A stretch of DNA of 64,000 bases, taken from assembly GCA_041559015.1 (NCBI GenBank), contig JBFFED010000001.1, positions 2,361 to 66,360 of the forward strand, read 5' to 3'. How positions within the stretch are numbered: the first letter of the stretch is position 1; every line of letters starts with the position of its first letter. Shown here one piece after another: positions 4,753 through 30,009 of this stretch. The stretch comes from Thermoplasmata archaeon (GTDB taxonomy: Archaea; Thermoplasmatota; Thermoplasmata; UBA10834). Below the pieces are notes generated by a model. That model worked only from the letters and a program-made list of their open reading frames with translations, did not search any database and had not been told where the DNA came from. The translations under genes and the position numbers were made by a program.

Positions 4753-4915
4753 CTTTCCAGGGTTCTCTCGCACGGCCTGGCAGCCCACAGCGCACATATA
4801 TACCCCGAACGAAGCACACAATAGTACGTTGCCAGGCACCGTGTGCAACACATTGATATCCAACTTGCCCCGTTCCGAATCCGCCGGCCATCAGACCGGC
4901 AACATGGTGAGCCAG

Positions 4916-6484
4916 ATGAAGGTGCTCGTCGCAGACGAGATATCGAAGACAGGCGTGGAGATGCTCAAGGCGCAGGGCTACTCCGTCGATGTGCGGACAG
5001 GTCAGAAGGAGGACGACCTGGTCAAGATCATTGGAGGCTACGACGTCCTCCTCGTCAGGAGCGCGACCAAGGCCACCAGGAAGGTCATCGAGGCCGGTAG
5101 ACTGAAGGTCATCGGGCGAGCCGGCATAGGCGTGGACAACATCGACGTCGAAGCCGCGACCGAGCGCGGCGTCCTGGTCATGAACGCGCCCTCGGGGAAC
5201 GTCATATCCACGGCCGAGCTCACCATAGGACTCATGTTCTCGTTGGCGCGGAAGATACCCCAGGCGGACGCATCCACTAAGAAGGGCGAGTGGAAGCGCA
5301 AGGAGATGAAGGGCGCGCAGATCCAAGGGAAGACCCTGGGTATCGTTGGCCTGGGAAGGGTGGGTGCGGAGGTGGCAAGGAGAGCGGCCGCACTGGGCAT
5401 GACCGTGGTCGCTTACGACCCACTCGTGTCCCCCGAGGTGGGCACGAGGCTCCATGTCAGGCTCCTGCCGCTCGACAGGCTTCTGGTCGACGCCGACATC
5501 GTGACCGTCCACACGCCCCTCACGCCGCAGACAAAGGACCTCATAGGCAAGGCCGAGTTCGCCAAGATGAAGAAGAATGCCCTCTTAATCAACTGCGCCA
5601 GGGGAGGCGTCGTGAACGAGGAGGACCTCCACGAGGCTCTGGCCGAGAAAAGGATCGCAGGTGCGGCCCTCGATGTGTTCATGAACGAGCCACCTTCGGG
5701 CTCGAAGTTGCTCACGCTCCAGAACGTCATCCTGACGCCGCACCTGGGCGCTACCACGATGGAGGCGCAGGAGGAGGTAGGGTCAGAGATAGCGGAGCAG
5801 GTCATAGCGTACCTCGAGGAGAACGTCATACGGAACGCCGTCAACCTCCCAGCGAAGTTGGATCCCGAGATTGTCCCGTACATGCCGCTGGCGGAGAAGC
5901 TGGGGACGATGGCCTGCCAGCTCGGGATGTGCAGCGCGTCAAGGATGGAAGTCTCCTGCAGAGGGGAGCTGGCGCAGAAGGACACGCGCATAATCGTGGC
6001 GTGTGCGGTCACTGGCCTCCTGAAGCCCTTGGCCGAGGAGTTCAACGTCAACTACATCAACGCCGTTGCCATCGCCAAGTCGAGGGGCATCGAGGTCGTC
6101 TCGTCGACCACCGAGGAGTCGGGCAGGTACAAGAACCTGATAAGCGTGGAGCTGCGGGCGAACGGGTCAACGGTCTCGGTCGTCGGATCGCTCATGCCGG
6201 ACAAGGTGGCGAAGATAGTCGAGATAGACGGCAACTCAGTGGACTTCGAGCCTGAAGGAAACTTCCTTCTGATAGGCCACTCGGACATGCCAGGCATGAT
6301 CGGCAAGGTGGGGACGGTCCTCGGGGACAACGACATCAACATAGCTGGCATGGAGGTCGCGAGAAAGGCCTCCAGAGGTCCGGCGATGATGATCCTGACC
6401 CTGGATGATGAGCTCCCCGGCTCAGTCCTGGCGAAGGTCCGGGAGATACCGAACCTGAAGTCCGCGACATCGATCAGGCTCTGA
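4916..6484 (+). CDS. serA: D-3-phosphoglycerate dehydrogenase (2-hydroxyacid dehydrogenase with C-terminal ASB/ACT regulatory domain)
   Basis: MKVLVADEIS... N-terminus. GxGxxG nucleotide motif GIVGLGRVGAEVA. Catalytic-region motifs (…NCARGGVVNE…). Length of about 520 aa with a C-terminal ACT-like tail. Start placed at an internal ATG (the track ORF starts at 4829). Confidence 0.9.
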   Translation: MKVLVADEISKTGVEMLKAQGYSVDVRTGQKEDDLVKIIGGYDVLLVRSATKATRKVIEAGRLKVIGRAGIGVDNIDVEAATERGVLVMNAPSGNVISTAELTIGLMFSLARKIPQADASTKKGEWKRKEMKGAQIQGKTLGIVGLGRVGAEVARRAAALGMTVVAYDPLVSPEVGTRLHVRLLPLDRLLVDADIVTVHTPLTPQTKDLIGKAEFAKMKKNALLINCARGGVVNEEDLHEALAEKRIAGAALDVFMNEPPSGSKLLTLQNVILTPHLGATTMEAQEEVGSEIAEQVIAYLEENVIRNAVNLPAKLDPEIVPYMPLAEKLGTMACQLGMCSASRMEVSCRGELAQKDTRIIVACAVTGLLKPLAEEFNVNYINAVAIAKSRGIEVVSSTTEESGRYKNLISVELRANGSTVSVVGSLMPDKVAKIVEIDGNSVDFEPEGNFLLIGHSDMPGMIGKVGTVLGDNDINIAGMEVARKASRGPAMMILTLDDELPGSVLAKVREIPNLKSATSIRL

Positions 6485-7099: not shown

Positions 7100-8251
7100 T
7101 CAGGCCAGGACCCTCTTGATCCGTTCCATGCCTTCCTGGATGTTCTTCTTGTCGGTCGCATACGATATGCGTATGTGCTGCTCGCCCGCCTTGCCGAACG
7201 CCGCGCCACCCGTGACCGCGACCTCGGCCTTGTCCATGAGGTGCAGCGCGAACTTCTCAGAGCCCATCTCGGCTTCGTACCTCGGGAAGACATAGAAGGC
7301 GCCCTTGGGCCTGTCGCAGTGAAGGCTCGGGATGTCCTTCATCAGATCCATGATCAGGTCCCTGCGCTCCTGGAACTCCCTGACCATCTCCTTGACCGGC
7401 TCCTTGGGCCCTGTCATCGCCGCAAGCCCCCCGTACTGGGCGAAAGAGGTGGCGTGGGTGATCGAGTGCTGCTGCACCTTGTTGATGCCCGCGAATATCG
7501 GTTTCGGGGCGAGCAACCATCCGAGCCTCCAGCCGGTCATCGCGTAGGTCTTGCTGAAACCGCTTATGGTGATGGTACGCTCCATCATGCCGGGCTCGGC
7601 CGCCATTGAATGGTGCTTCAGGCCGTCGAATATGATCTTCTCGTACACCTCGTCCGCGAGCACCACGAGGTCGTGGTCCTTCGCGAGGTCAGCGATGCCC
7701 TTGATGTCGTCGTGCGTCTCGACAGCGCCGCACGGGTTCGAAGGGGAGTTGTAGAGTATCATCTTGGTCTTCGGGGTGATGAGCTCGGCCACAGCATCCG
7801 GGGTCATCCTCCACTCGGACTCCTCGGTGGTCGTGCAGGGAACCGCCCTGCCGCCAGCCAGGACCACGCACGGCTCGTATGTCACCCATGACGGGTCGGG
7901 CATGATGACCTCCTCGCCCTCGTTGACCGTGGCCATGACCGACTCGAATATGGCGTGCTTGGTCGGGGCCACCAGGACGTTGGACGGTTCGCAGGGGATT
8001 CCGTTGGCCTCCTTGGCCTCCTTGGCTATGGCCTCCCTCAGCGCAGGCAACCCGGGCGCGTTCAGGTATCTCGTCTTGCCCTCGTCGAGAGCCTTCTTTG
8101 CGGCCTCGACTATGTGCCTAGGAGTGTCGAAGTCGGGCTCCCCGACCGTGAACGAGATGATCTTCTTTCCCTCGGCCTTCTTCTGCCCGGCCAGTTCCTT
8201 CATCCTCATCGTACCAGATTCTTGGACTTTCTTGACTCGTTCAGCGATCAT
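7100..8251 (-). CDS. Class I/II pyridoxal-phosphate aminotransferase (aspartate/aromatic aminotransferase family)
   Basis: N-terminus MIAERVKKVQESG. Motifs FTVGEPDFDTP, …NSPSNPCG…, …SGFSKTYAMTGWRLG… (PLP-lysine region). Internal ATG chosen (the track ORF starts at 8314). Confidence 0.85.
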   Translation of the reverse strand: MIAERVKKVQESGTMRMKELAGQKKAEGKKIISFTVGEPDFDTPRHIVEAAKKALDEGKTRYLNAPGLPALREAIAKEAKEANGIPCEPSNVLVAPTKHAIFESVMATVNEGEEVIMPDPSWVTYEPCVVLAGGRAVPCTTTEESEWRMTPDAVAELITPKTKMILYNSPSNPCGAVETHDDIKGIADLAKDHDLVVLADEVYEKIIFDGLKHHSMAAEPGMMERTITISGFSKTYAMTGWRLGWLLAPKPIFAGINKVQQHSITHATSFAQYGGLAAMTGPKEPVKEMVREFQERRDLIMDLMKDIPSLHCDRPKGAFYVFPRYEAEMGSEKFALHLMDKAEVAVTGGAAFGKAGEQHIRISYATDKKNIQEGMERIKRVLA

Positions 8252-8377
8252 CGTGTTCACCCCACCCGTGAAGTGCGCGAGCAATATAAAGCATTGGTGT
8301 CCAACTATTGGCATGGCGCTGGGAGGCCACCACTCGCATCAAAACGATATTATGCGGAGATTGCTTTCGATTGCCCA

Positions 8378-9385
8378 ATGGCCCTCAGGACAGGCAAGCT
8401 ACCACAGGAGATTCTCAGAAGGCTGCTCAGACACAGGGGCGCGGAGGACAACTCGGTCGTCCTCGGGCCGGCTGTCGGCGAGGACGCGGCGGTCGTGAGA
8501 CTGGGCAAGGAACTCCTCGTCTTGAAGACCGACCCAGTGACCTATGCGACCGACATGATCGGGTGGTACGCGGTGCACGTCAACGCCAACGATGTAGCGA
8601 CCAGAGGGGCGAGGCCCGCCTGGTTCCAGGCGGTGATATTGCTCCCCCCGGGCTCCGAGGAGGCGCTTGCGGAGAGCATATTCAAGCAGATATCCCAGGC
8701 GGCCAGAACCCTGGGGATCGCAGTTACCGGCGGACACACCGAGGTCACCCCGGGGATCGACCGGCCCATCGTCGTCGGCGATATGCACGGCCTGCTGGGC
8801 AGGCGCAAGCCCGTGACCACCTCTGGGGCAAGGGCCGGTGACTCTCTCGTGATGACCAAGAGCGCCGGCATAGAAGGCACGGCTGCAATCGCGCGTGAGA
8901 GAAGGGAGGAGCTGCTGAGAGCCTTCGACCCCAAGATGGTCGAGAAGGCGTCGAAGTACCTGTTCAAGCCCGGCCTGTCCGTGGTCCGGGAGGCGCACGC
9001 CGCGCTCGAATTCGGTGTGAGCGCGATGCACGACCCGACCGAGGGCGGAGTGGCCATGGGGGTGTTCGAGATGGCAGCTGCGTCGAGGAAATCCTTCAAG
9101 CTCTATCCGGAGAAGGTCGTCGTTGGCAGGGAGACCTCGATGATATGCGAGAAGTACGGGCTCGATCCGCTCGGCCTGTTGGGTTCGGGAGCGCTCCTTG
9201 CGACTTTCAGCCCGAAGGACGCTGAGGCCTACTTGAGGAAGGTCCGGGGCATGGGGATCAGCGCCGCGGTCGTTGGGAAGGTCATACCGGGCAAGGGCAG
9301 GTCAATGGCGGTCGCGGGCGACGGGACGGTCACTCCGCTTTCTTCTTCGGAGCGCGACGAGATCTTGAAGGTTTTAGGGCCTTGA
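8378..9385 (+). CDS. AIR-synthase-related protein (PurM superfamily, HypE-like, COG0309)
   Basis: Begins MALRTGKLPQEILRRLL. Segment ...VHVNANDVATRGARP...IAVTGGHTEV... resembles the HypE/PurM N- and C-domain cores. The ATG at 8378 is internal to the longer track ORF, whose 5' end overlaps the divergent aminotransferase. Confidence 0.75.
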   Translation: MALRTGKLPQEILRRLLRHRGAEDNSVVLGPAVGEDAAVVRLGKELLVLKTDPVTYATDMIGWYAVHVNANDVATRGARPAWFQAVILLPPGSEEALAESIFKQISQAARTLGIAVTGGHTEVTPGIDRPIVVGDMHGLLGRRKPVTTSGARAGDSLVMTKSAGIEGTAAIARERREELLRAFDPKMVEKASKYLFKPGLSVVREAHAALEFGVSAMHDPTEGGVAMGVFEMAAASRKSFKLYPEKVVVGRETSMICEKYGLDPLGLLGSGALLATFSPKDAEAYLRKVRGMGISAAVVGKVIPGKGRSMAVAGDGTVTPLSSSERDEILKVLGP

Positions 9386-11257: not shown

Positions 11258-12022
11258 TCAGACCCTCGCGTGCCGCCTCAGAACCTCGCTCCCCAGGAGG
11301 AGTATCTCAAATCCATTCAGCTCGCCCAGCAAGACGCCGTCGTCGTCGACCACGGGAAGGTCCTCCATGCTGTTGTCTATCATCTTCCTGAGCGCGGTGA
11401 TCAACTTGTCGTCCTGGTAGACCGTGACTGGCTTGACCATGTACTCTTCCACTGAGAACGGCAACACCCCCCTCTTGCTCCTGACCACGGGCCGGTCCTT
11501 GTCGAAGAGCGACAGGGAGCTCTCGATGGCTTTCAGCATCTGATTGAGCCCGATCATCCCCAGTAGACGCCTCCCGTCATCCACCACGTACGCGCTCCTC
11601 GTCCGAGGGTCCGCGAGGACCCTGTCCACGACCTCGTTGAGTATCATCCTCTGCGTGACGATTATCGGGTCGGTCACCACGAGCCTGAAGGCGTCCCGAA
11701 CATACCGGAATGAGAGTTCGTCAGCCATCCTCTCGAACATCCCTGCGCTCAGCTCCCGCTCGACTATCTCGAGCGCGGACCTGCCTGTCTGGGTCAGGGT
11801 GTGCTTCTTCCAGGTCCTCCTGCCAGGCTCCAATTGCTCGAGCACGCCCCTCGACTCCAGCTCCTTGAGGCCGGTGCTCACGTTCTGAATGGAGCGGCCA
11901 GAGTCCTGAGCAATCTCTGAAGCGCCTGCGAACTTGTGGTGCTTGAAGTACCTGATGGTCACGAGCCGTCTGTCGGATCTTATAATCCACTTCGCGATAT
12001 CCCTGGTGTCATTCTCCGCCAT
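11258..12022 (-). CDS. Transcriptional regulator with N-terminal winged-helix DNA-binding domain and a CBS domain pair
   Basis: wHTH region (…ASEIAQDSGRSIQNVSTGLKELESRGVLEQ…) followed by two CBS-like units (…DPIIVTQRMILNEVVDRVL…, …KPVTVYQDDKLITALRKMIDNSMEDLPVVDDDGVLLG…). Divergent from the opine-dehydrogenase operon. Confidence 0.7.
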   Translation of the reverse strand: MAENDTRDIAKWIIRSDRRLVTIRYFKHHKFAGASEIAQDSGRSIQNVSTGLKELESRGVLEQLEPGRRTWKKHTLTQTGRSALEIVERELSAGMFERMADELSFRYVRDAFRLVVTDPIIVTQRMILNEVVDRVLADPRTRSAYVVDDGRRLLGMIGLNQMLKAIESSLSLFDKDRPVVRSKRGVLPFSVEEYMVKPVTVYQDDKLITALRKMIDNSMEDLPVVDDDGVLLGELNGFEILLLGSEVLRRHARV

Positions 12023-12248
12023 GCTATCACTGAGCGAGCCGCAGGACTGGACTCTCTACCGCGCATGCCCTTCGATGATAATCGCTGGCAACCGTTTAAT
12101 AGTTATTCATCATTTATCATAATTAGTCATAGGGATGGCCCCTACTGATCCTCGCCATCTGTGAAACAGACCAGCTGGGGGCATCCCGCAAAGTTATCAC
12201 GAGGGTGTAAGTCTGCGTACCTCCAAATCGAGAGGTGAATCGAGGCCG

Positions 12249-13328
12249 ATTTTCGCGGTCCTTGGGGCCGGGCATGGCGGCCTGGCGATGGCCGGGCACC
12301 TGGCGATCATGGGCTTCCCCACGCGACTCTGGAACAGGTCGCGTGAGAGGATAGACAACGTCAACGACAGGGGCGGCGTCGAGGTCGAGGGGGTCATCGA
12401 GGGCTACGGCAATGTGGAGCTTGCCTCGGACGACATCGAGGAGGTGCTCGACGGCGCGGACGTCGTGATGGTAGTCGTGCCCGCACCTGGGCACAGAGAC
12501 GTCGCCGAGCTGTGCGCGCCCTATCTCACCAATAGGCACTCCGTGATACTCAATCCCGGCAGGACCTTCGGGGCGATAGAGTTCATGAACGTGCTCAGGC
12601 AGAAGAAGGTCAAGGCAAGGCCAATCGTCGCCGAGACGCAGACTTTCATCTATGTGTCAAGGCACGCGGAGCCGGCCAGGGCTAGGATAATCCAGATGAA
12701 GAACTCGGTGCCCTTGGCGGCCATCCCCGCGCACAAGACGCCCCAGGTCCTCGAAGTCGTGAGACGCGCCTTCCCGCAGTTCGTGGCAGCGAGCAACGTG
12801 CTCGAGACGAGCCTCGACAACATAGGTGCGATATTCCACCCGTCGCTCACAATCCTGAATGCCGCAAGGATAGAGTCCACGCACGGGGATTTCGAGTACT
12901 ACCTCGAGGGCATCTCGCCCTCTGCCGCAAGGGTCCTGGAATCGGCGGACGCGGAGCGGGTGGGCGTCGGTGCCGCACTCGGGATACATCTACACACAGC
13001 AAGGGAATGGCTCTATCTAGCCTACGACTCCCCTGGGAGAAGTCTCTACGAGGCGGTCCAGGCGACCCCCGGATACAAAGGCGTCCGCGCCCCCGCCACC
13101 TTGACCCACAGATACATCCTGGAGGACGTCCCCATGAGCCTCGTGCCCATCACATCAGTTGCAGGGCTCGCCGGGGTGAAGACCCCGACCCTCCAGACGC
13201 TCATACATCTTGCATCGACCATGCACGGCCGAGACTTCTGGGCCGAGGGAAGGACCGTCGAGAAGCTCGGGCTGGCAGGCATGTCAGTCAAGGACATCAG
13301 GATGCTGGCCGTCAGGGGTGTGCGCTGA
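12249..13328 (+). CDS. Opine (octopine/nopaline) dehydrogenase-family NAD(P)H oxidoreductase; start likely ATT upstream of the first ATG
   Basis: The track ORF begins at ATG 12288 (MAGHLAIMGF…). The in-frame upstream codons encode IFAVLGAGHGGLA, the GxGxxG Rossmann strand, with no canonical start. GAGGTGA SD-like sequence lies about 9 nt before the ATT at about 12249. C-terminal region matches the Octopine_DH-type domain. Confidence 0.75.
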   Translation: MFAVLGAGHGGLAMAGHLAIMGFPTRLWNRSRERIDNVNDRGGVEVEGVIEGYGNVELASDDIEEVLDGADVVMVVVPAPGHRDVAELCAPYLTNRHSVILNPGRTFGAIEFMNVLRQKKVKARPIVAETQTFIYVSRHAEPARARIIQMKNSVPLAAIPAHKTPQVLEVVRRAFPQFVAASNVLETSLDNIGAIFHPSLTILNAARIESTHGDFEYYLEGISPSAARVLESADAERVGVGAALGIHLHTAREWLYLAYDSPGRSLYEAVQATPGYKGVRAPATLTHRYILEDVPMSLVPITSVAGLAGVKTPTLQTLIHLASTMHGRDFWAEGRTVEKLGLAGMSVKDIRMLAVRGVR

Positions 13329-14986
13329 TTAGGATCCTTGGAGCGGCCATAGGCAACTGTGTCCACGTCGGCGGCATAAATGCGTTCCTGGGGCTGGCGA
13401 AGGGCATGGGATACGAGGTAGAGTTCATGGGCCCTGCGGTCCCGGTCAGGCAGCTGGTGCCCGCGATCAAGCTCAAGAACCCGGACATAGTCGCGCTGAG
13501 CTACAGGTTGACCGCAGAGTCTGCGGCACCCATCTTCGAGGAGCTGAAGGCGGAGATCGAGAAGGACCCTGCCCTTCAGGGCAGGCGATACCTCTTCGGG
13601 GGCACCGCCCCCGTTGCGATGGTCGCCCGCGACAGCGGCATCTTCGAGGCGGCGTTCGACGGCAGCGAGCCTGTGGAGGCCATCAAGGCGGCCCTTCAGA
13701 GAGTACCCGTACCCAAGGAGGAGAGGGTCTGGAGCCCGAGCCTCATAGGTCGGATAGAGAGCTCGTACCCCGTCCCGCTCCTTAGACACCATTTCGGGCT
13801 GCCGAGGATGAAGGACACCCTCGAGGGCGCGAGGAGAATCGCGGAGGCGGGTGTTCTGGACATACTCTCCCTGGCACCCGACCAGAACGCCCAGGAATCC
13901 TTCTTCCGGCCGATGGAGATGGACCCGAACCTGGACGGCGCCGGGGGCGCGCCCTTCAGGAGGCCTGAAGACCTGAAGGCGGTCTGGGACGCCACCAGAA
14001 GGGGCAGCCACCCGCTCCTGAGATGCTACAGCGGCACTCGCGACCTCATAAAGTGGGCGGAGATGCTCAAGTCAACGATCGACATTGCCTGGGGGGCAGT
14101 GCCGATCTCCTGGTACAGTGAGCTGGACGGCCGGTCGAAGCGCCCGCTCAGGGACGCGATCGCGGAGAACCAGGAGGCCATCAGGTGGTACGCCCGGAGC
14201 GGAATCCCGGTCGAGATAAACGAGTCGCATCAGTGGGCCCTGAGGGGCTGCGGCGACACTATAGAGCTTGCGATGGCGTACGTTGCCGCCTGCAACGCGC
14301 GCGCGCTCGGCGTTAGGGACTACGTTTGCCAGCTCATGTTCGACACGCCGAAGGGCATCTCGCCTTCCATGGACCTGGCGAAGATGCTCGCCAAGCTGGA
14401 ACTCGTCGAATCGCTCGCGAACGGCACGTTCAAAGTCATCAGGATGGTGAGGTCCGGGCTGGCATCCCTGTCACCTTCCCAGAATGAGGCGAAGGGCCAG
14501 CTCGCCGCGTCGATATACTCCGCCATGTCCCTTCAGCCGCACATAGTCCATGTCGTTGGTTTCAGCGAGGCCGACCACGTCGCCACGCCCCAGGAGATAA
14601 TCGAGAGCTGTCAGATAGCGAAGGGGGCCGTGGCCAAGGCCCTGCTTGGCATGCCGAGCCCCGAGGCCGATCCAAAGATCGCGGCCAGGAAGGCGCAGCT
14701 GCTTGAGGAGGTGAAGTTCCTCCTGGACGCGGTCAAGAGGACTGGCAGCAAGGAGGTCAAGGAGCCGCTCACATCGCCCGAGGTACTGTCAATGGCGGTG
14801 AAGCGCGGGCTCCTGGACGCCCCCGACCTCAAGGGGAACCCTGCAGCGCTCGGCTCGATCACGACCACGATCGTCAACGGCGCGTGCGTGGCAGTCGACA
14901 GGGCCTCGAACCTTCCGATTCTGGAGAGGGACCGGGTGGCGAAGCTCGCAACAACCGAGGAGGACCTCGACCTCGTGGAGATATAG
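13328..14986 (+). CDS. Fusion of MutS-like B12-binding-type domain and GlmE-like domain (methylaspartate/glutamate-mutase-like)
   Basis: N-terminal about 130 aa resemble the glutamate-mutase S subunit fold (RILGAAIGNCVHVGG…GYEVEFMGPAV…DIVALSYRLT…) but lack the Asp of DxHxxG. The remainder aligns in pattern to GlmE/MamB (…GAVPISWYSELDGRS…IRWYARSGIPVEINESHQWAL…). The only in-frame ATG/GTG/TTG is far upstream inside the opine dehydrogenase gene, so start is placed at the ATT overlapping the opine dehydrogenase stop. Confidence 0.6.
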   Translation: MRILGAAIGNCVHVGGINAFLGLAKGMGYEVEFMGPAVPVRQLVPAIKLKNPDIVALSYRLTAESAAPIFEELKAEIEKDPALQGRRYLFGGTAPVAMVARDSGIFEAAFDGSEPVEAIKAALQRVPVPKEERVWSPSLIGRIESSYPVPLLRHHFGLPRMKDTLEGARRIAEAGVLDILSLAPDQNAQESFFRPMEMDPNLDGAGGAPFRRPEDLKAVWDATRRGSHPLLRCYSGTRDLIKWAEMLKSTIDIAWGAVPISWYSELDGRSKRPLRDAIAENQEAIRWYARSGIPVEINESHQWALRGCGDTIELAMAYVAACNARALGVRDYVCQLMFDTPKGISPSMDLAKMLAKLELVESLANGTFKVIRMVRSGLASLSPSQNEAKGQLAASIYSAMSLQPHIVHVVGFSEADHVATPQEIIESCQIAKGAVAKALLGMPSPEADPKIAARKAQLLEEVKFLLDAVKRTGSKEVKEPLTSPEVLSMAVKRGLLDAPDLKGNPAALGSITTTIVNGACVAVDRASNLPILERDRVAKLATTEEDLDLVEI

Positions 14987-14999
14987 GAGTTCGGATACG

Positions 15000-16475
15000 A
15001 TGCAAGGGATAGCAGGCACATATGGTTCGCCTGACCGGATACTGGCAAGACGGATGGTCGAGAGGATCTCGCACAGGGGTCCAGACAGGAAGGACATGAT
15101 CGAAGATGACGGACTGGCAATCGCGGCTCGTAAGCCCAGGCCGTCCCCGAAAGGCACCGCCAGGGCAATCGTGGAAGGAGATGGTATCGCAGTAGCGTCG
15201 GACAGCTACCTGTTCAACTCGGAGCTCCTCAAGGAGCTCTTCCTGGAGGACTCGGATGAGGACGCCGGAGACGCCGACCTCCTCATAGACATGTACACGG
15301 CCATAGGGACGAAGATGTTCGGGTACCTCGATGGGGCTTTCGCAATCGCGATATCCGACAACGGCCGGCTGGTGCTCGCGAGGGACAGGTACGGACTGAA
15401 ACCCATGTACATCTCCGGGGGCGTCCGCGAGGGCACCTTCTCCTCTGAGATCAAGTCCCAGCTCGTCGCGGGGGACGAGTTCGTGCCCTTCCCTCCAGGG
15501 AAGGTCCTCGTGGCCGGCAAGGGCTTCTCGCCGATGTGGCCTCGTAAGCCCCCGGTGAGCAGGAGCCGCCCGTCAGGAGACAAGCCGAAGAAACTCCGAC
15601 AGCTGGTGATCGACGGGGTGAGGAGCTGCTGCCGGGAAGGGCAGGGTCTGAACGTCCTGCTCAGCGGAGGGATAGACAGCAGCGTGGTTGCCGCAGCGGC
15701 GTCCGAGGTGACGGACGGGCTGTCAACTGTCTGCGTGGGGACCGAGCGGAGCTCGGACCTCAGGATGGCGAGGAAGGTCGCGGAGAGGATAGGCTCCGAC
15801 CACAGGGAGAAGGTATACAGCACCGAGGAGATGCTCGACGTCCTAGAAGAAGTGGTCTGCGCGGCCGAGAGCTTCGATTTCCCGCTCATCAGGAGCTGCA
15901 TACCAAACTACATGGCCACGCACCTGTTTGACGACAGGCACCTGGTCACCTTGTGTGGTGAGGGGGGCGACGAGATCTTCGCGGGGTACGATTACATGCG
16001 CGCCATCAGCGGTGACGAGGCTCTGAGGAGGGAGCGCAGGAAACTGCTCAGGACAGGTTGGATGACGGGGTTCCAGAGGGTTGACAGGATGACCGCGAGC
16101 GCGTCCCTAGACGGGCGCATTCCCCTGATGGGCAGGGACATGGTCGATTTCGGGATGTCGCTCGACAGGAGGGACCTGATAGGCCCCGGCATCGAGCACA
16201 GCAAACTGATCCTGAGGAAGGCGTTCCAGAAGTCCCTGCCGAAGGAAGTCGCGTGGAGGAGGAAGCAGAGGTTCAGCGACGGCGCTGGTTCCATCCAAGC
16301 CCTGGTGTCGATAGCCGAGGATATGATATCCGATGCCGAATTCGAGAAGGAGCGGAGGGTGCTCCCCAGGGGAAGGATAAGGACGAAGGAAGAGCTCCTG
16401 TACTACCGTTACTTCACCGAGGAGTTCCCGTCCAAGAGCGCGGCGGCGGCGGTCGGCTTCACTCCTAGGCCTTAG
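15000..16475 (+). CDS. Asparagine-synthetase-family (AsnB-like) ATP-dependent amide synthetase lacking the N-terminal Cys nucleophile
   Basis: MQGIAGTYG… has Gln where class-II amidotransferases have Cys2. Intact PP-loop SGGIDSS and C-terminal synthetase domain. 491 aa. Confidence 0.85.
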   Translation: MQGIAGTYGSPDRILARRMVERISHRGPDRKDMIEDDGLAIAARKPRPSPKGTARAIVEGDGIAVASDSYLFNSELLKELFLEDSDEDAGDADLLIDMYTAIGTKMFGYLDGAFAIAISDNGRLVLARDRYGLKPMYISGGVREGTFSSEIKSQLVAGDEFVPFPPGKVLVAGKGFSPMWPRKPPVSRSRPSGDKPKKLRQLVIDGVRSCCREGQGLNVLLSGGIDSSVVAAAASEVTDGLSTVCVGTERSSDLRMARKVAERIGSDHREKVYSTEEMLDVLEEVVCAAESFDFPLIRSCIPNYMATHLFDDRHLVTLCGEGGDEIFAGYDYMRAISGDEALRRERRKLLRTGWMTGFQRVDRMTASASLDGRIPLMGRDMVDFGMSLDRRDLIGPGIEHSKLILRKAFQKSLPKEVAWRRKQRFSDGAGSIQALVSIAEDMISDAEFEKERRVLPRGRIRTKEELLYYRYFTEEFPSKSAAAAVGFTPRP

Positions 16476-17268
16476 ATCGAGCCTTCTTCGCTCTGGTCTT
16501 GCGTGCAGCCGGAGTGCGGGCGGGCGGTATCACGTTCCTGCGGCGCTCAGCGGTGGTGTACCTGCAGGCCAACTGACACGCCGTGCACATGACAGTGCTC
16601 TGGGGCGTAAGGGCGGCACAGTGCTTCGACAGCAACTGCTTCAGCTCTGGCTTCGCGCCGGGAGTGGTCGTCACGCCCACGAGGCACCTGCCAGGGTCGA
16701 CCGTGTACGGCTCGAGGGCGTCCGCGGGACAGGCGGTTAGGCATCTCTCGCACTTCCCGCACAGGTCGCCCTCGAAAGGCCTGTCGGGGGCGAGGGGTGC
16801 GTTGGTCAGCACGGCTCCGAACCGGAGCCACGGGCCGTACTTGGGGTGTATGATGAGGGCGTTCTTGCCGTAGCTGCCTACCCCCGCGAGCTGGGCGATG
16901 CGCTTGTAAGAGGCGTACACGGACGGAGCGCACGCCTCGAAGCCGTAGTTCCTGATCACTCTCATCAGCTCGCGCATGATTATGCTGATGGGCATGTATC
17001 CGGGATAGTCCTGACGGCCATCTGACCGCCTGATCTCTATCTCGTCCGCATCGTCGGTCGACAATATGCCGAACAGGACGACCGATCTAGCGTCCGGCAT
17101 AGTGTCGCGTAGCTTCTTGGTCCACCTGTTTATGGTCCACTCGATCTTCACGGGGGGGAGTGCGTCAGCGTCGTCCACTGAGACGATTCCGAACACGACC
17201 GCGCCCTTCTTCCTGGCCCTGTCCCTGAGCACGTCCTTCAGGTCTGCATCTCTCTTGACCGGCACCAT
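16465..17268 (-). CDS. QueG-like Fe-S oxidoreductase (DUF1730 plus two 4Fe-4S ferredoxin motifs)
   Basis: …IIHPKYGPWLRFGAVLTNAPL…CGKCERCLTACP… and a second Cys cluster (…CTACQLAC…) match the epoxyqueuosine-reductase architecture. Basic C-terminal tail. Confidence 0.65.
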   Translation of the reverse strand: MVPVKRDADLKDVLRDRARKKGAVVFGIVSVDDADALPPVKIEWTINRWTKKLRDTMPDARSVVLFGILSTDDADEIEIRRSDGRQDYPGYMPISIIMRELMRVIRNYGFEACAPSVYASYKRIAQLAGVGSYGKNALIIHPKYGPWLRFGAVLTNAPLAPDRPFEGDLCGKCERCLTACPADALEPYTVDPGRCLVGVTTTPGAKPELKQLLSKHCAALTPQSTVMCTACQLACRYTTAERRRNVIPPARTPAARKTRAKKARSKA

Positions 17269-17484
17269 TGTCCCGACCCTGGAATGCGCTCCCGCCTATT
17301 GAATGGTGTCCTCTGGCCAAGGCGCGCCTGTCGAACGGGCCCATGGACGCGATGTCTCCGTCCATAAGTATTCCGGCGAGAGTGGCGAGCGACCAGTCGC
17401 CGCGTGCGTCACACCACCAGGAGCGTCAAGCATTATAAGGCGAGAGCAGATGCGAAGAGGGACATCCACGGGGTGCAGAGGCGC

Positions 17485-18735
17485 ATGACACGGGGGTCCG
17501 ATGACTGCTCCAGACCGTCCAGGAAGAGGCGCATACTGGCCGGCATCAGCACGAACGTCCTCGTGCTTGGGATAGTCAGCCTGCTCACGGACATGAGCAG
17601 TGAGATGATCTATCCGATCATGCCCCTGTTCCTGACGGCGATAGGGGCCAGCGGGCTCGTCATCGGCCTGATAGAGGGCGCCTCCGAGACGACCGCGTCA
17701 CTGATCAAGGTGTTCTCCGGGTGGTACTCTGACAGGTACAGGAGGAGGAAGCCGTTCATCCTCGCAGGGTACGGCTCGAGCTCTGCGGTGAAACCCGTCC
17801 TCTACTTGGCGACCGCTCCGTGGCACGTACTCGGTCTCAAGATAATGGAGCGCGTGGGCAAGGGCGTGAGAAGCGCTCCGAGGGACGCCCTCATCGCCGA
17901 CTCCACGGACAGCGCGTACCGCGGGAGGGCTTTCGGGTTCCACAAGGCCATGGACTCGACCGGCGCGGTCATAGGCCCGCTGCTCGTCCTCCCCGTGCTC
18001 GTGGCCGCAGCGGCGGTCACCACCGACACCTACAGGCTCATCTTCCTCATCTCAGCGATCCCCGCATTTGTTGCGGTCGCGATAATAGTCCTGTTCTTGC
18101 GGGACAAGAAGACCGACCATGCCGACAAGATCGACAAGATGTTCAAGGAGATGAGGCACCTCGGAGACAGGTTCTACCTGCTCCTCATGGTCATCGTGGT
18201 GTTCTACATCGGCGAGATAAGCTACGCGTTCTTCATCCTGAGGGCGATGGACGAGGGCTTCACGGTGTTTGGGCTCGGCGTAGACGCCTCGATTATTCTG
18301 CTGTACGTCACCCTGAACCTATTCTTCGTACTCTTCGCGCTACTGACTGGCGGGATATCGGACAGGATCGGGAGGAAACCCGTCATAGCGGCATCATTTG
18401 TCATCTTCGCATTGACATGCGTGGTCATGACGATGACGGGGTCCTACATGCTGCTGGTGCTCGGGTTCGCGATGTTCGGGGTCTACAAGGGCTCGTCCGA
18501 AGGGGTGCTCAAGGCGTATGTCATCGATGTCGTTCCGAAGGGGCTGAGGGGGACCGCAATGGGAGCGTTCCATACGGCCGTAGGGCTGGTCATGCTGCCG
18601 GGGGGCATAATGGCAGGGTTCCTGTGGGACAGCTACGGACATTGGGCGACCTTCGCCTATGGCGCGTCCGCCGCGTTGTTGGCCCTGGTGCTCCTAATCG
18701 TGATAGCTCCCGATGTGGACAAGAAGGCCGGCTAA
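17485..18735 (+). CDS. MFS transporter
   Basis: 12 predicted TM segments. MFS signature-like loop (…GWYSDRYRRRKPF…). ATG at about 17485 is internal to the track ORF. Confidence 0.8.
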   Translation: MTRGSDDCSRPSRKRRILAGISTNVLVLGIVSLLTDMSSEMIYPIMPLFLTAIGASGLVIGLIEGASETTASLIKVFSGWYSDRYRRRKPFILAGYGSSSAVKPVLYLATAPWHVLGLKIMERVGKGVRSAPRDALIADSTDSAYRGRAFGFHKAMDSTGAVIGPLLVLPVLVAAAAVTTDTYRLIFLISAIPAFVAVAIIVLFLRDKKTDHADKIDKMFKEMRHLGDRFYLLLMVIVVFYIGEISYAFFILRAMDEGFTVFGLGVDASIILLYVTLNLFFVLFALLTGGISDRIGRKPVIAASFVIFALTCVVMTMTGSYMLLVLGFAMFGVYKGSSEGVLKAYVIDVVPKGLRGTAMGAFHTAVGLVMLPGGIMAGFLWDSYGHWATFAYGASAALLALVLLIVIAPDVDKKAG

Positions 18736-18801: not shown

Positions 18802-19812
18802 TTGAGAGGCCCGCGGATATCCCCCCTGAGCCCGAAGGGGGGCACCGATCTGAAGATCAGCAAGAACCTCGCGTACGGCCTCATAGCCCTCGCCGCCGTC
18901 ATGTGGGCCAGCTCAGGCACTTTCACCGAGCTCGCCCTAGACGCGGGGGCGCGGGTGATGCAAGTCACTGTCTTCGCCTCCGTGTTCACAACGCTGATAC
19001 TGCTCCCCGCCATCGGCGTCTTCGACCCGAGATCCCTCTGGATAAGGAGGAAGGATTTCCTGCCGATGCTCGTCTTCAGCCTCATAACCGGCACATTCTT
19101 CTCCATCGCATGGTACATGTGCATCGACCTCACGGGCGTCGCCACCGCGGTCGTGCTCCTGTACGCCTACCCGAGCATCGTCACCGTCGCGTCCATCTTC
19201 CTGCTCGGCGAGAAGCTCACCCTCGGCAAGGCCCTGGCCCTGCCCCTCACATTCATCGGCTGCGTCCTGGTCGCTGGCGCGAGCGACCTCGAGACGGGCT
19301 TCTCCTTCAACCTGGCAGGGATAGCGCTCGGGATATACACCGCGCTCGCGGCGACCGTCTACTACATCTGGGGGAAGAAGTTCCTGGACAAGTACTCGGC
19401 CAACACGGTGATACTCTACATGACCGCGCTCTCGATACCGGGCATCATACTGATAGCCAACCCCATGACCATCCTGGAGAACCACATATCCGGCGAGGCG
19501 TGGGCGTACATATTCGCCATCGGGCTCTTCCCCGGCACGATAGGGTTCGTCGTGTCCATGGTAGCGCTCAGATACATCGAGGCGAGCAAGGCGAGCATAG
19601 TCGCGAGCATAGAGCCTGTGGCCGCAGTTGTCATCGCGGTCCTGGTGATCGCGGATGTGATCACCCTCCTGCAGGGGGTGGGGGTTGGGCTCGTATTCGT
19701 GGGTGTGCTCCTCCTAAGGCTGACGAGGAAGGACAAGGACGAAGGACCCAGGGTACCGTTGGGCCCTGACAATCCGGACGATGAAAAACAGGATATATCC
19801 ACCAGGGTATGA
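18802..19812 (+). CDS. DMT-superfamily (EamA-like) transporter
   Basis: Two EamA-like 5-TM repeats. Hydrophobic throughout. TTG start per the ORF track; start is uncertain. Confidence 0.75.
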   Translation: MRGPRISPLSPKGGTDLKISKNLAYGLIALAAVMWASSGTFTELALDAGARVMQVTVFASVFTTLILLPAIGVFDPRSLWIRRKDFLPMLVFSLITGTFFSIAWYMCIDLTGVATAVVLLYAYPSIVTVASIFLLGEKLTLGKALALPLTFIGCVLVAGASDLETGFSFNLAGIALGIYTALAATVYYIWGKKFLDKYSANTVILYMTALSIPGIILIANPMTILENHISGEAWAYIFAIGLFPGTIGFVVSMVALRYIEASKASIVASIEPVAAVVIAVLVIADVITLLQGVGVGLVFVGVLLLRLTRKDKDEGPRVPLGPDNPDDEKQDISTRV

Positions 19813-23490: not shown

Positions 23491-24114
23491 TCAGGCCCTC
23501 GCCAGCTTGACCAGCCGACGAGTGAGCGCCCCGCCCATGACCGATATGTCCTCCGTCGGGAGCACCTTGCCCGTGTTCGCGTCGAAGAGGATGTTGGCCG
23601 CCGCAGGGACCTCCTCGTCCCCAAGCCAGAGCACGACGACCACGGGCGTCCTCGGGAAGAAGTCCACCTTGAATCCGACAGACCCCACATCTACAGGCTC
23701 GCCCCTCATGGCCTCCCCGATCCCCTTCAATAGGGCCGGCTTTTCACCGAACTCCTTGACGATGACATCCATCGTGCGGGCCTTGAACGCGGGGTAGTAG
23801 ATCGCCCCGCCCTCGAAATCGCGGAAGGTCACCAGCCTGTTGGCCAGCTGGGCCCTGTCTGCGCCTTCGAGATAGTGAAGCACGAGTATCTGCAGGTGCG
23901 GCGGGACCTCCTGACCGCCGGGGCCGAGGTATGCCATGGTCTTGGCCCCGAGGTCGATAGCGCAGTCCTTGTCCATGATCCTCAACACAAGGTTCTTCGT
24001 GCCGGGGACCACGGACAGGTCGAGTGTCTCAGACAGGTGCTTGGAGCTCAGGTATGATGCCTTCTCCCATGCGCCCCTGAGGGGCTCGAGGTTGGCCGGC
24101 TTCTTCAGGTCCAA
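23491..24114 (-). CDS. DUF3786-like protein, co-transcribed downstream of acsE
   Basis: About 207 aa. Sits 16 nt after the acsE stop. Size and cluster context match DUF3786 proteins seen in CODH/ACS and corrinoid gene clusters. TTG start per the track. Confidence 0.5.
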   Translation of the reverse strand: MDLKKPANLEPLRGAWEKASYLSSKHLSETLDLSVVPGTKNLVLRIMDKDCAIDLGAKTMAYLGPGGQEVPPHLQILVLHYLEGADRAQLANRLVTFRDFEGGAIYYPAFKARTMDVIVKEFGEKPALLKGIGEAMRGEPVDVGSVGFKVDFFPRTPVVVVLWLGDEEVPAAANILFDANTGKVLPTEDISVMGGALTRRLVKLARA

Positions 24115-25046: not shown

Positions 25047-26948
25047 ATGAGAGGGGGATCTGCTAGGAGGAGCCACAAAATAGTATTCGTGGAGGACCGC
25101 AAGGAGGTCGTGCTCGAGGAGGGCAGGACCGTCCTCGAGGCCTGTCAGGCTGCGGGCATACCCATAGACTCCGTGTGCGGCGGCCGAGGTAAGTGCGGCA
25201 GGTGCAAGGTCAGGGTAACCGGGCACTTCTCCGCGGACCCGAGCCCACTGCTCTCGGAGGCAGAACGGCGCGAGGGGATTGTCCTCGCGTGCCTCGCGAG
25301 GGGTCAGGGGCACCTCAAGGTGCATGTGCTCCCCCGCTCCCGGCTGACGAAACATCAGATACTCACGACCTCGGCCGAGGAGCTGCCAGACCCCATCGCG
25401 CCATGGTGCTGGAAGGAGTTCATCGAGCTCCCCCCGGCGACGCTCTCGGACAACATCGCGGACCTGGAGAGGTTGGCAAGGGCGATGGGCGGAAGGCAGC
25501 TGTCTGTCCCCCTGGAGACCCTCAGGGAGCTCCCGGGGGCGCTCAGGGAGGGCGGATGGAAGGTCACCGTCACGATGTCCGACCTCGGGCGCGGCCCGGA
25601 GGTGGTCAGGGTGGAGCCAGGGGACACTCGCGCTAGGCTTCTCGGGATTGCGGTGGACGTCGGCACGACCACCATAGTCGTCGACCTCGTCGACCTCCTC
25701 ACCGGGAAAGTGCTGGGGACCGCATCAGACTATAACAGGCAGGTCTCCAGAGGGGAGGACGTCATCGCTCGCATGATGCACAGCGAGGAAACGGGCGTGG
25801 AAGATCTCACCGCGCTGGCGAGGGAAACCGTCAACTCGTGCATCGAGTCCCTCCTAGCCGACGAGTCCAGGAGGGCCGGCAAGGCAGTCTCCGCCCAGGA
25901 CATCGTCTCGGCCTCGGTCGCGGGCAACACCGTGATGACACACTTCTTCGCTTGCCTGTCGACCGGGCACGTGCGGCTGGAACCCTACGTTCCAGTGGTG
26001 CACAGGATGCCGGAGTTGAGCGGCGCGGACCTCGGGATGCTCATGAACCACTCGGGGAAGGTCCTGCTGTTCCCTTCCCGAGCCGGGTACGTCGGCGGCG
26101 ATGTCGTGGCGGACGTGCTCGCGAGCGGCATGCACAGGTCGGGCAGGCTCTCGCTCCTGATCGATGTAGGCACGAACGGAGAGGTGGTGCTCGGCACGAA
26201 GGACTGGATCATCACGTGCTCGTGCTCTGCCGGCCCTGCGTTCGAGGGGGCCGAGGTGTCCTGCGGCATGAGGGCCATGGAGGGCGCGATCGACCGCATA
26301 AGGATAAACGATGACCTGTCGACGACATACCACGTGATAGGAGGAGGGCCTCCCCTGGGAATCTGCGGCTCCGGCCTGATAGACCTCCTCTCCGAGATGT
26401 ACACGCACGGGGTCATCGACCGCAAGGCCAGGATACAGGAGCTCGGAGGTGGCAGGACGGTGCCCTCGGAGTCAGGCCTCGCATTCGTCGTCGAGAGGAA
26501 GGAGGAGCTGGGGAACGGAGCGCCGTCGGACATGACGATAACCGATGCCGACCTCCAGAACCTGCTAAGGACGAAGGCGGCGATATACGGTGCTTGCGCG
26601 GTCCTGCTGCGTAAGACCGGGGAGTCGCTCGATGGCATCCACAGGGTGTTCATAGCTGGCGGGTTCGGATACCACCTGGACATCGAGCGCGCGATATCCA
26701 TCGGGATGTTCCCCGACCTGCCCCGGAGGAAGTACACGTTCATAGGCAACGGCGCCCTGGGCGGCGCGAGGCTCGGGCTGTTGTCCAGGAAACGCAGGAA
26801 GGAGGCCGTGGACATCTTCGAGAAGATGACCTACCTGGAGCTGAGCGTCGACAACGAATTCTACAACGAGTTCTCCTCCTCGCTCTTCATACCGCACACA
26901 GACCTGAGCCAGTTCCCCAGCGTGGGCAAGTCGGGGGAGGATGCGTGA
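25047..26948 (+). CDS. Reductive activator of corrinoid Fe-S protein (RACo-like: N-terminal 2Fe-2S ferredoxin plus ASKHA ATPase domain)
   Basis: Plant-type ferredoxin Cys pattern (CGGRGKCGRCKV…LAC). About 500-aa ASKHA/DUF4445-like region with nucleotide-binding Gly loops (…IDVGTNGEVV…, …GICGSG…). Stop overlaps the cooC GTG start. Confidence 0.85.
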   Translation: MRGGSARRSHKIVFVEDRKEVVLEEGRTVLEACQAAGIPIDSVCGGRGKCGRCKVRVTGHFSADPSPLLSEAERREGIVLACLARGQGHLKVHVLPRSRLTKHQILTTSAEELPDPIAPWCWKEFIELPPATLSDNIADLERLARAMGGRQLSVPLETLRELPGALREGGWKVTVTMSDLGRGPEVVRVEPGDTRARLLGIAVDVGTTTIVVDLVDLLTGKVLGTASDYNRQVSRGEDVIARMMHSEETGVEDLTALARETVNSCIESLLADESRRAGKAVSAQDIVSASVAGNTVMTHFFACLSTGHVRLEPYVPVVHRMPELSGADLGMLMNHSGKVLLFPSRAGYVGGDVVADVLASGMHRSGRLSLLIDVGTNGEVVLGTKDWIITCSCSAGPAFEGAEVSCGMRAMEGAIDRIRINDDLSTTYHVIGGGPPLGICGSGLIDLLSEMYTHGVIDRKARIQELGGGRTVPSESGLAFVVERKEELGNGAPSDMTITDADLQNLLRTKAAIYGACAVLLRKTGESLDGIHRVFIAGGFGYHLDIERAISIGMFPDLPRRKYTFIGNGALGGARLGLLSRKRRKEAVDIFEKMTYLELSVDNEFYNEFSSSLFIPHTDLSQFPSVGKSGEDA

Positions 26949-27703: not shown

Positions 27704-27706
27704 AAC

Positions 27707-29991: not shown

Positions 29992-30009
29992 AGCTGTTCC
30001 CCCAGTACC

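Follow-up and report, generated by a model that had tools for sequence, protein, structure and literature searches.

We analysed a 64,000-nucleotide stretch of the genome of a Thermoplasmata archaeon (GenBank assembly GCA_041559015.1, contig JBFFED010000001.1, positions 2,361 to 66,360 of the forward strand), called the window below. Its gene of interest encodes a single chain in which a vitamin B12-binding domain precedes a barrel resembling that of the glutamate mutase subunit GlmE; we refer to it as the mutase gene. It lies between a gene for an opine dehydrogenase and one for a relative of the asparagine synthetase AsnB, and the three together are referred to as the module. The features are:

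12213 to 13328, plus strand: CENDH-like opine dehydrogenase (PF02317, E = 3e-47), probable CTG start at 12213, coupled translationally to the mutase gene.
13325 to 14986, plus strand: fused B12-binding/GlmE-like mutase gene, 552-553 amino acids, probable CTG start at 13325, with ATT 13328 as the alternative.
13328 to 13702, plus strand: Rossmann-type B12-binding domain, residues 1 to about 125 (PF02310, profile and Foldseek matches).
13358 to 13375, plus strand: motif C11-V-H13-V-G-G16, a variant of DxHxxG; His13 (13364-13366) is the predicted lower axial cobalt ligand.
13499 to 13510, plus strand: S58-Y-R-L61, which corresponds to the SxL motif and aligns with the LS..LT segment of 4jgi and MttC.
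13598 to 13606, plus strand: G91-G92-T93, which corresponds to the GG motif and aligns with the GG of 4jgi, MttC and 1y80.
13742 to 14983, plus strand: GlmE-like TIM barrel and C-terminal domain, residues 139-552 (AlphaFold2 model, Foldseek, hhalign).
15000 to 16475, plus strand: AsnB-like adenylating amide synthetase without the catalytic Cys (PF00733, GATase_7; N-terminus MQGIAG).

The plus-strand frame at 13328-14986 translates as IRILGAAIGNCVHVGGINAF...GYEVEFMG...DIVALSYRL..., and the protein reads IRILGAAIGNCVHVGGINAFLGLAKGMGYEVEFMGPAVPVRQLVPAIKLKNPDIVALSYRL... Both the frame and the strings quoted in the initial annotation of this DNA agree exactly with the translation. The frame is nested in a longer, mechanically called open reading frame (ORF; 13007-14986), but homologues are 552-553 amino acids long and cover 100% of the reading from 13328.

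Residues 2-118 match the Pfam B12-binding family PF02310 with 36.9 bits (gathering score 32.1), and this family is matched in all 23 of the relatives that we aligned. A profile of the family aligns the N-terminal domain to the solved corrinoid domains of 4jgi, OraE, MttC, 1y80 and 2yxb. The corrinoid protein 4jgi is the best sequence match in the PDB, and Foldseek superposes the N-terminal domain on it with a root-mean-square deviation of 2.9 Å. The proposal that the protein begins with a B12-binding domain of the glutamate mutase S type was thus borne out by the Pfam score and by the alignment to corrinoid domains.

His13 aligns with the cobalt-ligating His of 4jgi (...GDLHDIG...) and OraE (...EDEHSVG...). 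The motif in the window reads G9-N10-C11-V12-H13-V14-G15-G16, with Cys11 at the Asp position of DxHxxG and Asn10 before it. Conservation was counted over 73 sequences of the core family, which come from many phyla: C11, H13, G16, S58, R60, L61 and G91 are present in every one of them, G92 in 69, and position 10 is N, S or T, rarely A, K or D. The loss of the canonical Asp, which the initial annotation had pointed out, is therefore a property of the whole core family, and because C11, H13 and G16 are invariant in all 73 sequences the Cys is not there by chance. Across subfamilies the motif forms a graded series, from canonical DxHxxG (P0296, QDPHTQG; P0313, LDAHTLG) through D-C-x-H-x-x-G (P0258, SDCVHVAG; P0272, GDCVHSLG) to the [N/S/T]-C-x-H-x-x-G of the core family.

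Apart from the change of Asp to an invariant Cys11, every element of the B12 signature that we looked for (His13, Gly16, S58..L61, G91-G92) is kept. A cobalamin signature that is otherwise intact does not sit easily with base-on binding or with loss of the cofactor. These possibilities, and that of a different corrinoid, had been raised by the initial annotation, and they are disfavoured by the invariant residues, by the graded series and by fusions to MutL in distant relatives. The likeliest mode of binding is base-off/His-on, in which His13 would sit on the cobalt of adenosylcobalamin (AdoCbl) and Cys11, together with the small polar N, S or T at position 10, would take over as second-shell partner from the Asp that normally forms a hydrogen bond to this His. 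As part of the joint reading of a novel pathway that we set out below, and with rather less than even confidence, the CxHxxG variant would amount to a functionally retuned form of the classical His-Asp cobalt-ligand dyad.

In three distant members (P0272, P0276 and P0278) the B12 and GlmE-like unit is fused to MutL (PF13941), the family of the chaperone/reactivase of glutamate mutase. These fusions are the strongest indirect sign in the data and indicate that the proteins may be working AdoCbl radical enzymes. A further relative, P0258, carries an ATP-grasp ligase domain (GSH-S_ATP/RimK) on the same chain as the mutase.

The C-terminal part by itself has no match in Pfam or NCBIfam, and searches of the PDB with the single sequence and with a 23-sequence profile found the B12 domain only and not GlmE. 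An AlphaFold2 model, calculated without templates from a 23-sequence alignment, had a mean pLDDT (predicted local distance difference test) of 88.3. Its top Foldseek matches in the PDB are the E subunit of glutamate mutase (6h9e_B/1cb7_B; E = 1.5e-16, TM score 0.65 on the target), followed by ornithine 4,5-aminomutase (E = 4e-12), lysine 5,6-aminomutase (E = 1e-10) and, further down, methylmalonyl-CoA and 2-hydroxyisobutyryl-CoA mutases (E = 1e-7 to 1e-5). The methyltransferase-type barrel of BHMT (1lt7) appears only at rank 50.

Profile comparison with hhalign pointed to the same relative. A narrow family profile gave no significant match to a lone GlmE sequence (E = 0.31), and neither did the 73 family sequences to close GlmE homologues (E = 0.45), the alignments being collinear. 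The GlmE sequence used was checked against 1cb7_B, and the search for GlmE homologues gave only sequences at least 78% identical. The match became significant only once distant subfamilies had joined the family profile (Neff 4.5), at which point it reached E = 9.8e-5 with an hhalign probability of 58% over 410 collinear columns. PF06368, the GlmE family, is matched in only 1 of the 23 relatives; P0258 (41% identical) passes it with 27.5 bits against a gathering score of 26.6, and P0094 carries a precomputed match.

Because of the fold match, the hhalign result and the PF06368 matches of P0258 and P0094, the GlmE-like assignment of the C-terminal domain holds, as judged from the model and the profiles. 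The structure prediction and the profile alignment that the initial annotation had proposed thus both led to GlmE, and the combination of PF02310, Foldseek and hhalign upholds its description of an S-like domain placed N-terminal to a GlmE-like barrel in one chain. Neither a non-cobalamin Rossmann fold for the N-terminus nor an unrelated TIM-barrel family for the C-terminus emerged from the profile and fold searches.

Among the 73 family sequences, 111 residues are conserved in at least 97%, including many polar residues of the barrel, which argues for catalysis. The invariant barrel residues are R153-H-H155, D185-Q-N-A-Q189, R232/Y234/G236-T237, W262-Y263, D267, R269, R272, E296, H301, R306, Q335, K352, K356, R375, H408 and E414. 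So many invariant Arg, His and Lys residues would fit a polycarboxylate substrate. The same conservation speaks against a B12-sensing or cofactor-less pseudoenzyme, for which the loss of the Asp could be read as a sign of changed chemistry.

That loss could equally suit a corrinoid methyl-carrier or methyltransferase protein. Such a protein would agree with the best PDB sequence match (4jgi), with weak NCBIfam matches to the corrinoid proteins MtgC and MtbC, and with the source names 'methionine synthase' and 'MCM cobalamin-binding subunit'. The NCBIfam corrinoid-protein matches, however, reach 11-21 bits against cut-offs of 215-450. Pfam searches of the window protein and 23 relatives found neither the B12-binding_2 helical cap nor a methyltransferase domain, the barrel is nearer to those of GlmE, OraE, KamD and methylmalonyl-CoA mutase (MCM) than to BHMT, and the MutL fusions exist. 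We rejected a corrinoid methyltransferase for want of the cap domain and because the barrel is of the wrong type, and we regard the methyl-carrier and pseudoenzyme explanations together as very improbable.

The simplest alternative is an ordinary glutamate mutase with fused S and E parts, converting glutamate to 3-methylaspartate for glutamate fermentation, a methylaspartate-type pathway or the supply of 3-methylaspartate. GlmE is after all the best fold match, the alignment to it is collinear and retains the pairs D96/D185 and E330/E414 (GlmE/window) together with the GT.D motif, and MutL is fused to distant members. The substrate-binding residues, which we take from the 1CCW structure to be Arg66, Arg100, Arg149, Glu171, Tyr177 and Tyr181 of GlmE, are nevertheless changed. 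In the alignment R66, R100 and R149 correspond to H155, Q189 and Y234, all three invariant in the window family; E171 corresponds to L266, which adjoins D267; and the loop that bears Y177 and Y181 is missing. The window protein also lacks a PF06368 match, and its partner genes, described next, are not those of glutamate mutase.

The spread of the family was determined in two ways. An exhaustive search of 1.84 billion proteins with the C-terminal domain gave 506 representatives at 50% clustering, 120 of them with E <= 1e-30, and a scan of one genome per species gave 534 relatives, from which 80 loci were fetched for the counts of neighbouring genes. Archaeal loci come from Thermoplasmatota, Methanomassiliicoccales, Thorarchaeota and Thermococci. 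The bacterial loci come from Bacteroidales/Rikenellaceae, Ignavibacteria, Thermoanaerobacter, Caldanaerobacter, Thermovorax, Fervidicola, Aminicenantes, Chloroflexi, Planctomycetia, Armatimonadota, Desantisbacteria, Omnitrophota and others. The mutase is a single chain in all 80. Databases name the relatives 'cobalamin B12-binding domain-containing protein', 'methionine synthase' or 'MCM cobalamin-binding subunit', which are generic or wrong.

An opine dehydrogenase gene adjoins the mutase gene in 74 of the 80 loci. In the window its stop codon overlaps the mutase start, and the dehydrogenase is still directly upstream in subfamilies that are just 32-41% identical, which makes this pair the ancient core. 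The Caldanaerobacter protein (L077) aligns over its full length with N-(1-D-carboxylethyl)-L-norvaline dehydrogenase (1bg6; E = 1.6e-87), and by sequence the neighbour of the mutase is a genuine opine dehydrogenase. The AsnB-like gene, which begins 14 nucleotides after the mutase gene in the window, adjoins the mutase in at least 51 loci. The 80 loci contain no other broadly conserved neighbour family; methylaspartate ammonia-lyase and mutL are not among the conserved neighbours. On the differences in active site and partner genes we rejected a true glutamate mutase, an explanation to which we give very little weight. The initial annotation had offered two options, an altered cofactor or a non-mutase paralogue. 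The first did not stand; of the second, what stands is a paralogue other than glutamate mutase, with the arginines replaced and partner genes of its own. Quite probably, to go by its sequence and modelled fold, the protein is a B12-dependent radical mutase other than glutamate mutase.

The AsnB-like protein resembles asparagine synthetase (1ct9, E = 1e-46) and beta-lactam synthetase (1jgt, E = 9e-21) in the PDB and the NCBIfam model trio_amidotrans (E = 7e-32). Its score with the AsnB model is 316.9 bits against a cut-off of 499, and it falls under every curated cut-off. The catalytic N-terminal Cys is replaced in about 41 of 51 sequences, by Ala, Ser, Gln, Glu or Thr: the N-terminus is MQGIAG in the window, with Gln for Cys, MAGIAG or MSGIAG elsewhere, and MCGIAG in a minority. 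Since some orthologues retain the Cys, amidation is favoured over lactam formation, and since the enzyme usually lacks it, free ammonia would be the usual source of nitrogen. One locus (L085) has no AsnB-like gene and has instead an ATP-grasp domain fused to the mutase and a Peptidase_C26/GATase gene. The swap has the look of a non-orthologous replacement and suggests that the third step of a pathway is an ATP-dependent amidation. Amidation of peptidoglycan by the AsnB-like partner was considered and rejected, as the module is present in Thermoplasmata too, organisms usually said to have no cell wall.

Taken together, the gene linkage suggests the following scheme. The CENDH-like dehydrogenase would reductively couple an amino acid and a 2-oxo acid to an N-(carboxyalkyl) amino acid. 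The mutase, a single-chain AdoCbl radical enzyme of the GlmS and GlmE lineage with its cobalamin domain ahead of the barrel, would then rearrange this imino-diacid, or a close derivative of it, by a radical 1,2-shift. What migrates may be an N-substituted glycyl-type fragment, in a carbon-skeleton rearrangement like that of glutamate mutase, or else the substituted amino group. Finally, a carboxylate would be converted to a carboxamide by the AsnB-like enzyme, usually with free ammonia, or by the variant with an ATP-grasp ligase and a GATase. The product would be a compatible solute accumulated under salt or osmotic stress, and an ATP-consuming, charge-neutralising amidation fits compatible-solute synthesis by analogy.

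A B12 amino-group mutase, moving a (substituted) amino group from the alpha to the beta position, could feed a beta-amino-acid amide osmolyte; a beta-glutamine-like or N-(2-carboxyethyl) compound would be an example of its product. OraE and KamD are indeed the next-best fold matches after GlmE, and the AsnB-like partner resembles 1jgt, a Cys-less AsnB homologue. N-(2-carboxyethyl) amino acids are the substrates of beta-lactam synthetase. Among the osmolytes of archaea, beta-amino acids and their amides are classic examples; by the time of a 2005 review the beta-glutamate pathway had been elucidated only in part (PMC1224877). A riboswitch-controlled kamA offers a precedent (PMC9337991). However, opposite the insertion that carries the pyridoxal phosphate (PLP)-binding Lys in OraE (DIKHGG) the family profile has a gap, we identified no PLP motif, and GlmE is clearly the better fold match (1.5e-16 versus 4e-12). 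An aminomutase of the PLP-dependent Ora/Kam type was rejected because the insertion is absent, and an amino-group mutase in general seems to us unlikely.

Evidence for a role of the module in stress comes from bacterial regulatory RNAs. Rfam scans of 33 bacterial loci found a riboswitch before the module in 8. The cyclic di-AMP (c-di-AMP) riboswitch RF00379 (gathering score 38) scores 96-117 bits in six loci (L045, L050, L051, L065, L077 and L049). It lies directly upstream of the opine dehydrogenase, with 105-117 bits, in Thermoanaerobacter (two loci), Caldanaerobacter, Thermovorax and Fervidicola; in an Armatimonadota locus (96 bits) it is followed by the AsnB-like, opine dehydrogenase and mutase genes. 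In the Caldanaerobacter locus the aptamer follows a promoter-like site; a hairpin with a T-run, resembling a terminator, comes next, and then the three-gene operon, which stops short of a convergent gene. The nhaA-I Li+/Na+ riboswitch RF03057 occurs with 44-51 bits in two further loci from two phyla (L020, two copies, and L031). In a planctomycete it stands ahead of the mutase gene and of one for an MscS channel. A Desantisbacterium has two copies, one before the genes for opine dehydrogenase, mutase, CBS protein and Na+/H+ exchanger, the other before the AsnB-like gene. That two unrelated stress-sensing RNAs converge on one module, in four phyla, is strong circumstantial evidence that it acts in salt or osmotic stress.

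In Bacteroidales loci the module stands beside genes for MscS, a 740-amino-acid AA_permease and a GT2-HAD protein. The last is a fusion of a GT2 glycosyltransferase and a HAD phosphatase that occupies the AsnB-like position after the mutase in L060 (7629-9002) and in L047, L070, L072 and L073, with the AA_permease and MscS genes coming after it. This arrangement may mean that the product has a glycosylated variant or that there is a second solute pathway.

The module could instead be catabolic or serve another stress function, such as the breakdown of opines or imino acids, decoration of the envelope or its polysaccharides, or a metallophore, with no compatible solute involved. One distant subfamily member lies inside a cluster for sugar-nucleotide and polysaccharide biosynthesis, and another distant member lies beside oligopeptide ABC ATPases and an AAT-family gene. 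Opine dehydrogenase reactions are reversible, and c-di-AMP riboswitches also govern transporter and cell-wall genes. Against this stand the convergence of two unrelated classes of salt- and osmotic-stress riboswitch, both of which the literature ties to ionic or osmotic stress, with a separate copy before the AsnB-like gene, the Na+/H+ exchanger and MscS genes co-transcribed with or adjacent to the module, the description of Thermoplasmata as wall-less, and an ATP-consuming amidation that suits biosynthesis better. We judge these alternatives, as a group, to be improbable, although less so than an amino-group mutase.

Several observations weigh against an AdoCbl mutase that serves solute synthesis. 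The window protein has no match to PF06368 at E <= 1, and an hhalign probability of 58% gives the mapping of the active site moderate reliability at most. The core family has no linked gene for an adenosyltransferase or for MutL. The distant member in the polysaccharide cluster suggests that the product may have other fates. A riboswitch in 8 of 33 bacterial loci is a low fraction, and Rfam scans found no regulatory RNA near the module in the archaeal window and no riboswitch in 11 Bacteroidota and Ignavibacteria loci, so that the osmotic role is only extrapolated to the window. Because c-di-AMP riboswitches also control transporter and cell-wall genes, the link to solute synthesis is indirect.

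On balance, an AdoCbl mutase in a three-step pathway to an opine-derived carboxamide compatible solute is the best explanation of the whole, with slightly better than even chances of being right. For the narrower statement that the module makes an osmoprotectant, argued by analogy with known osmolyte pathways, we would put the chances at about even. The most far-reaching version is that anaerobes of both domains share a dedicated B12-radical pathway to an undescribed opine-derived carboxamide solute, gated in bacteria by c-di-AMP and Li+/Na+ riboswitches; this is conceivable, with the odds somewhat against it.

Few families of AdoCbl carbon-skeleton and amino mutases are known, and each is mechanistically informative. 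This one offers a natural test of how the His-Asp dyad tunes the Co-N bond, as intermediate forms of the motif survive, and its substrate is probably supplied by the neighbouring opine dehydrogenase. The module is found in at least 10 phyla of Archaea and Bacteria, including the cultured thermophiles Caldanaerobacter and Thermoanaerobacter, and the two independent classes of osmotic- or ionic-stress riboswitch, together with the Na+/H+ exchanger and MscS neighbours, provide a physiological handle. If the osmolyte reading is true, there would be a new compatible solute, the salt tolerance of anaerobic communities would be tied to the availability of vitamin B12, and genes that at present carry the label 'cobalamin B12-binding domain-containing protein' or 'methionine synthase' would gain a function.

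The start codons of the module deserve comment. No ATG, GTG or TTG is present in the window sequence at the true N-terminus of the mutase, which is marked by the N-termini of homologues (M[KRT][KR]ILGAA) aligning exactly to the 13328 point. CTG 13325 precedes ATT 13328 and overlaps the upstream stop as CTGA. It is the likely start, because an 85%-identical relative (L084) retains the CTG and has ACG in place of the ATT, and because the relative P0002 has ATG at the position of the CTG; a start at ATT 13328 is disfavoured for the first of these reasons. The dehydrogenase likewise lacks an ATG, GTG or TTG start in the window. Its GxGxxG motif (AVLGAGHGG) is located upstream of its first ATG, at 12288, and would be removed by a start there. 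Across the start regions compared (window 12165-12290 and 13320-13330; L084 1780-1900 and 2880-3010; L004/L024 about 4835-4960), the dehydrogenase start codon is TTG in L004 and L024, ATG in L006 and L007, and CTG in the window (12213) and L084. Two successive CTG starts suggest deliberately weak or coupled translation. They also explain why gene callers truncate both the dehydrogenase and the mutase; close relatives of the latter are annotated as proteins of 526 amino acids.

Other genes of the window that bear on the module or on corrinoid metabolism are:

7955 to 9385, plus strand: AIRS/AIRS_C gene (PurM superfamily, HypE/ThiL-like).
11258 to 12022, minus strand: divergent gene for a protein with a winged helix-turn-helix (wHTH) and a CBS pair (PF00571 CBS, HVO_A0114), candidate regulator of the module in Thermoplasmata.
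16465 to 17268, minus strand: QueG/reductive-dehalogenase-related protein of 267 amino acids with Fer4_16 (TIGR00276 80.9 bits, reductive dehalogenase model 68 bits, both below cut-off).
17404 to 18735, plus strand: MFS transporter, after the module.
18802 to 19812, plus strand: EamA transporter, after the module.
23491 to 24114: DUF3786 gene.
25047 to 34209: acetyl-CoA synthase/CO dehydrogenase cluster.
25047 to 26948: RACo.
26945 to 27703: CooC-like ATPase.
27707 to 29230 and 29038 to 29991: two CdhD-family subunits of the corrinoid iron-sulfur protein (CFeSP); the mechanical ORFs overlap.
30010 to 34209: ORF of 1399 amino acids with fused Prismane/CO dehydrogenase (CODH) and CdhC/acetyl-CoA synthase (ACS) domains.

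Since the window encodes CFeSP subunits, a fused CODH/ACS and RACo, alongside the CooC-like ATPase, the use of corrinoids by the source organism is plausible. The wHTH-CBS gene is at the same position in L004-L007, L010-L014, L018, L024 and L084, and from its domains is a candidate regulator. The QueG-related gene directly follows the module only in the closest relatives, L004 and L006; QueG and the reductive dehalogenases are B12-dependent families. The AIRS/AIRS_C gene is found a few genes before the module in Thermoplasmata, and one also stands two genes upstream of it in the bacterial loci L002 (5151-6185) and L033 (1921-2916), with 33-36% identity; it could be a loosely linked fourth component or a coincidence. 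The EamA gene is kept beside the AsnB-like gene in the Thermoplasmata loci L001, L004, L006, L009 and L015, and the two transporters could move the product or substrate of the pathway in or out.

Our literature searches found nothing on this mutase family, on opine dehydrogenases together with a B12 mutase or asparagine synthase, on c-di-AMP riboswitches with cobalamin, or on ydaO with octopine, and the module genes are absent from the supplement of the Li+ riboswitch paper. For the Cys-for-Asp motif, the opine dehydrogenase partner and the riboswitch stress context, we accordingly found no described counterpart to what the sequences suggest.

Known systems resemble parts of this arrangement. 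The AblA/kamA osmolyte route also pairs a radical mutase with a charge-neutralising step under Na+ and c-di-AMP riboswitch control in bacteria (PMC9337991, PMC1224877), but AblA is a radical-SAM/PLP rather than a B12 enzyme, the proteins are unrelated and the second-step chemistry differs. The osmolytes beta-glutamine and acetyl-beta-lysine follow a logic similar to that of the proposed pathway (PMC1224877). In the NAGGN pathway (Ngg and AsnO) an AsnB-family enzyme forms the final amide of the osmolyte, and beta-lactam synthetase and CarA are Cys-less AsnB homologues like most of the partners seen here; unlike any of these, the AsnB-like enzyme of the module falls below the curated cut-offs while some orthologues retain the Cys.

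Among the B12 enzymes, IcmF and related fused acyl-CoA mutases, with methylmalonyl-CoA mutase, are natural fusions of a B12 domain and a substrate barrel and match at the level of the fold. The B12 domain of IcmF is also N-terminal. The window protein, however, lacks a G-protein (MeaB) domain and shows nothing that suggests an acyl-CoA tunnel, it matches their fold far less well than that of GlmE, and those enzymes have the canonical DxHxxG. The OraSE and KamDE aminomutases provide the second-best fold matches, and the B12 domain aligns with that of OraE (E = 3e-6). The window family differs in lacking the PLP-Lys insertion and an S or D partner subunit, and the B12 domain of OraE is C-terminal (residues 604-739 of 763) whereas that of the window protein is N-terminal.

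The closest system is glutamate mutase (GlmS/GlmE, MutS/MutE or MamA/MamB; EC 5.4.99.1), which shares the Rossmann B12 module with its His ligand, SxL and GG motifs, the fold of the barrel and C-terminal domain, and the association with MutL, seen here in distant members. The window protein differs from it as a single chain of 552 amino acids with the S-like domain at the N-terminus and CxHxxG in place of DxHxxG. Its family has His, Gln and Tyr for the arginine claw, lacks the Tyr177/181 loop, and has an opine dehydrogenase and an AsnB-like enzyme instead of a methylaspartase partner; PF06368 is blind to the window protein. From these likenesses and differences, read from sequence and the predicted fold, we regard the window family as a distinct enzyme family, a remote relative of GlmS/GlmE that resembles the class I (His-on) AdoCbl mutases.

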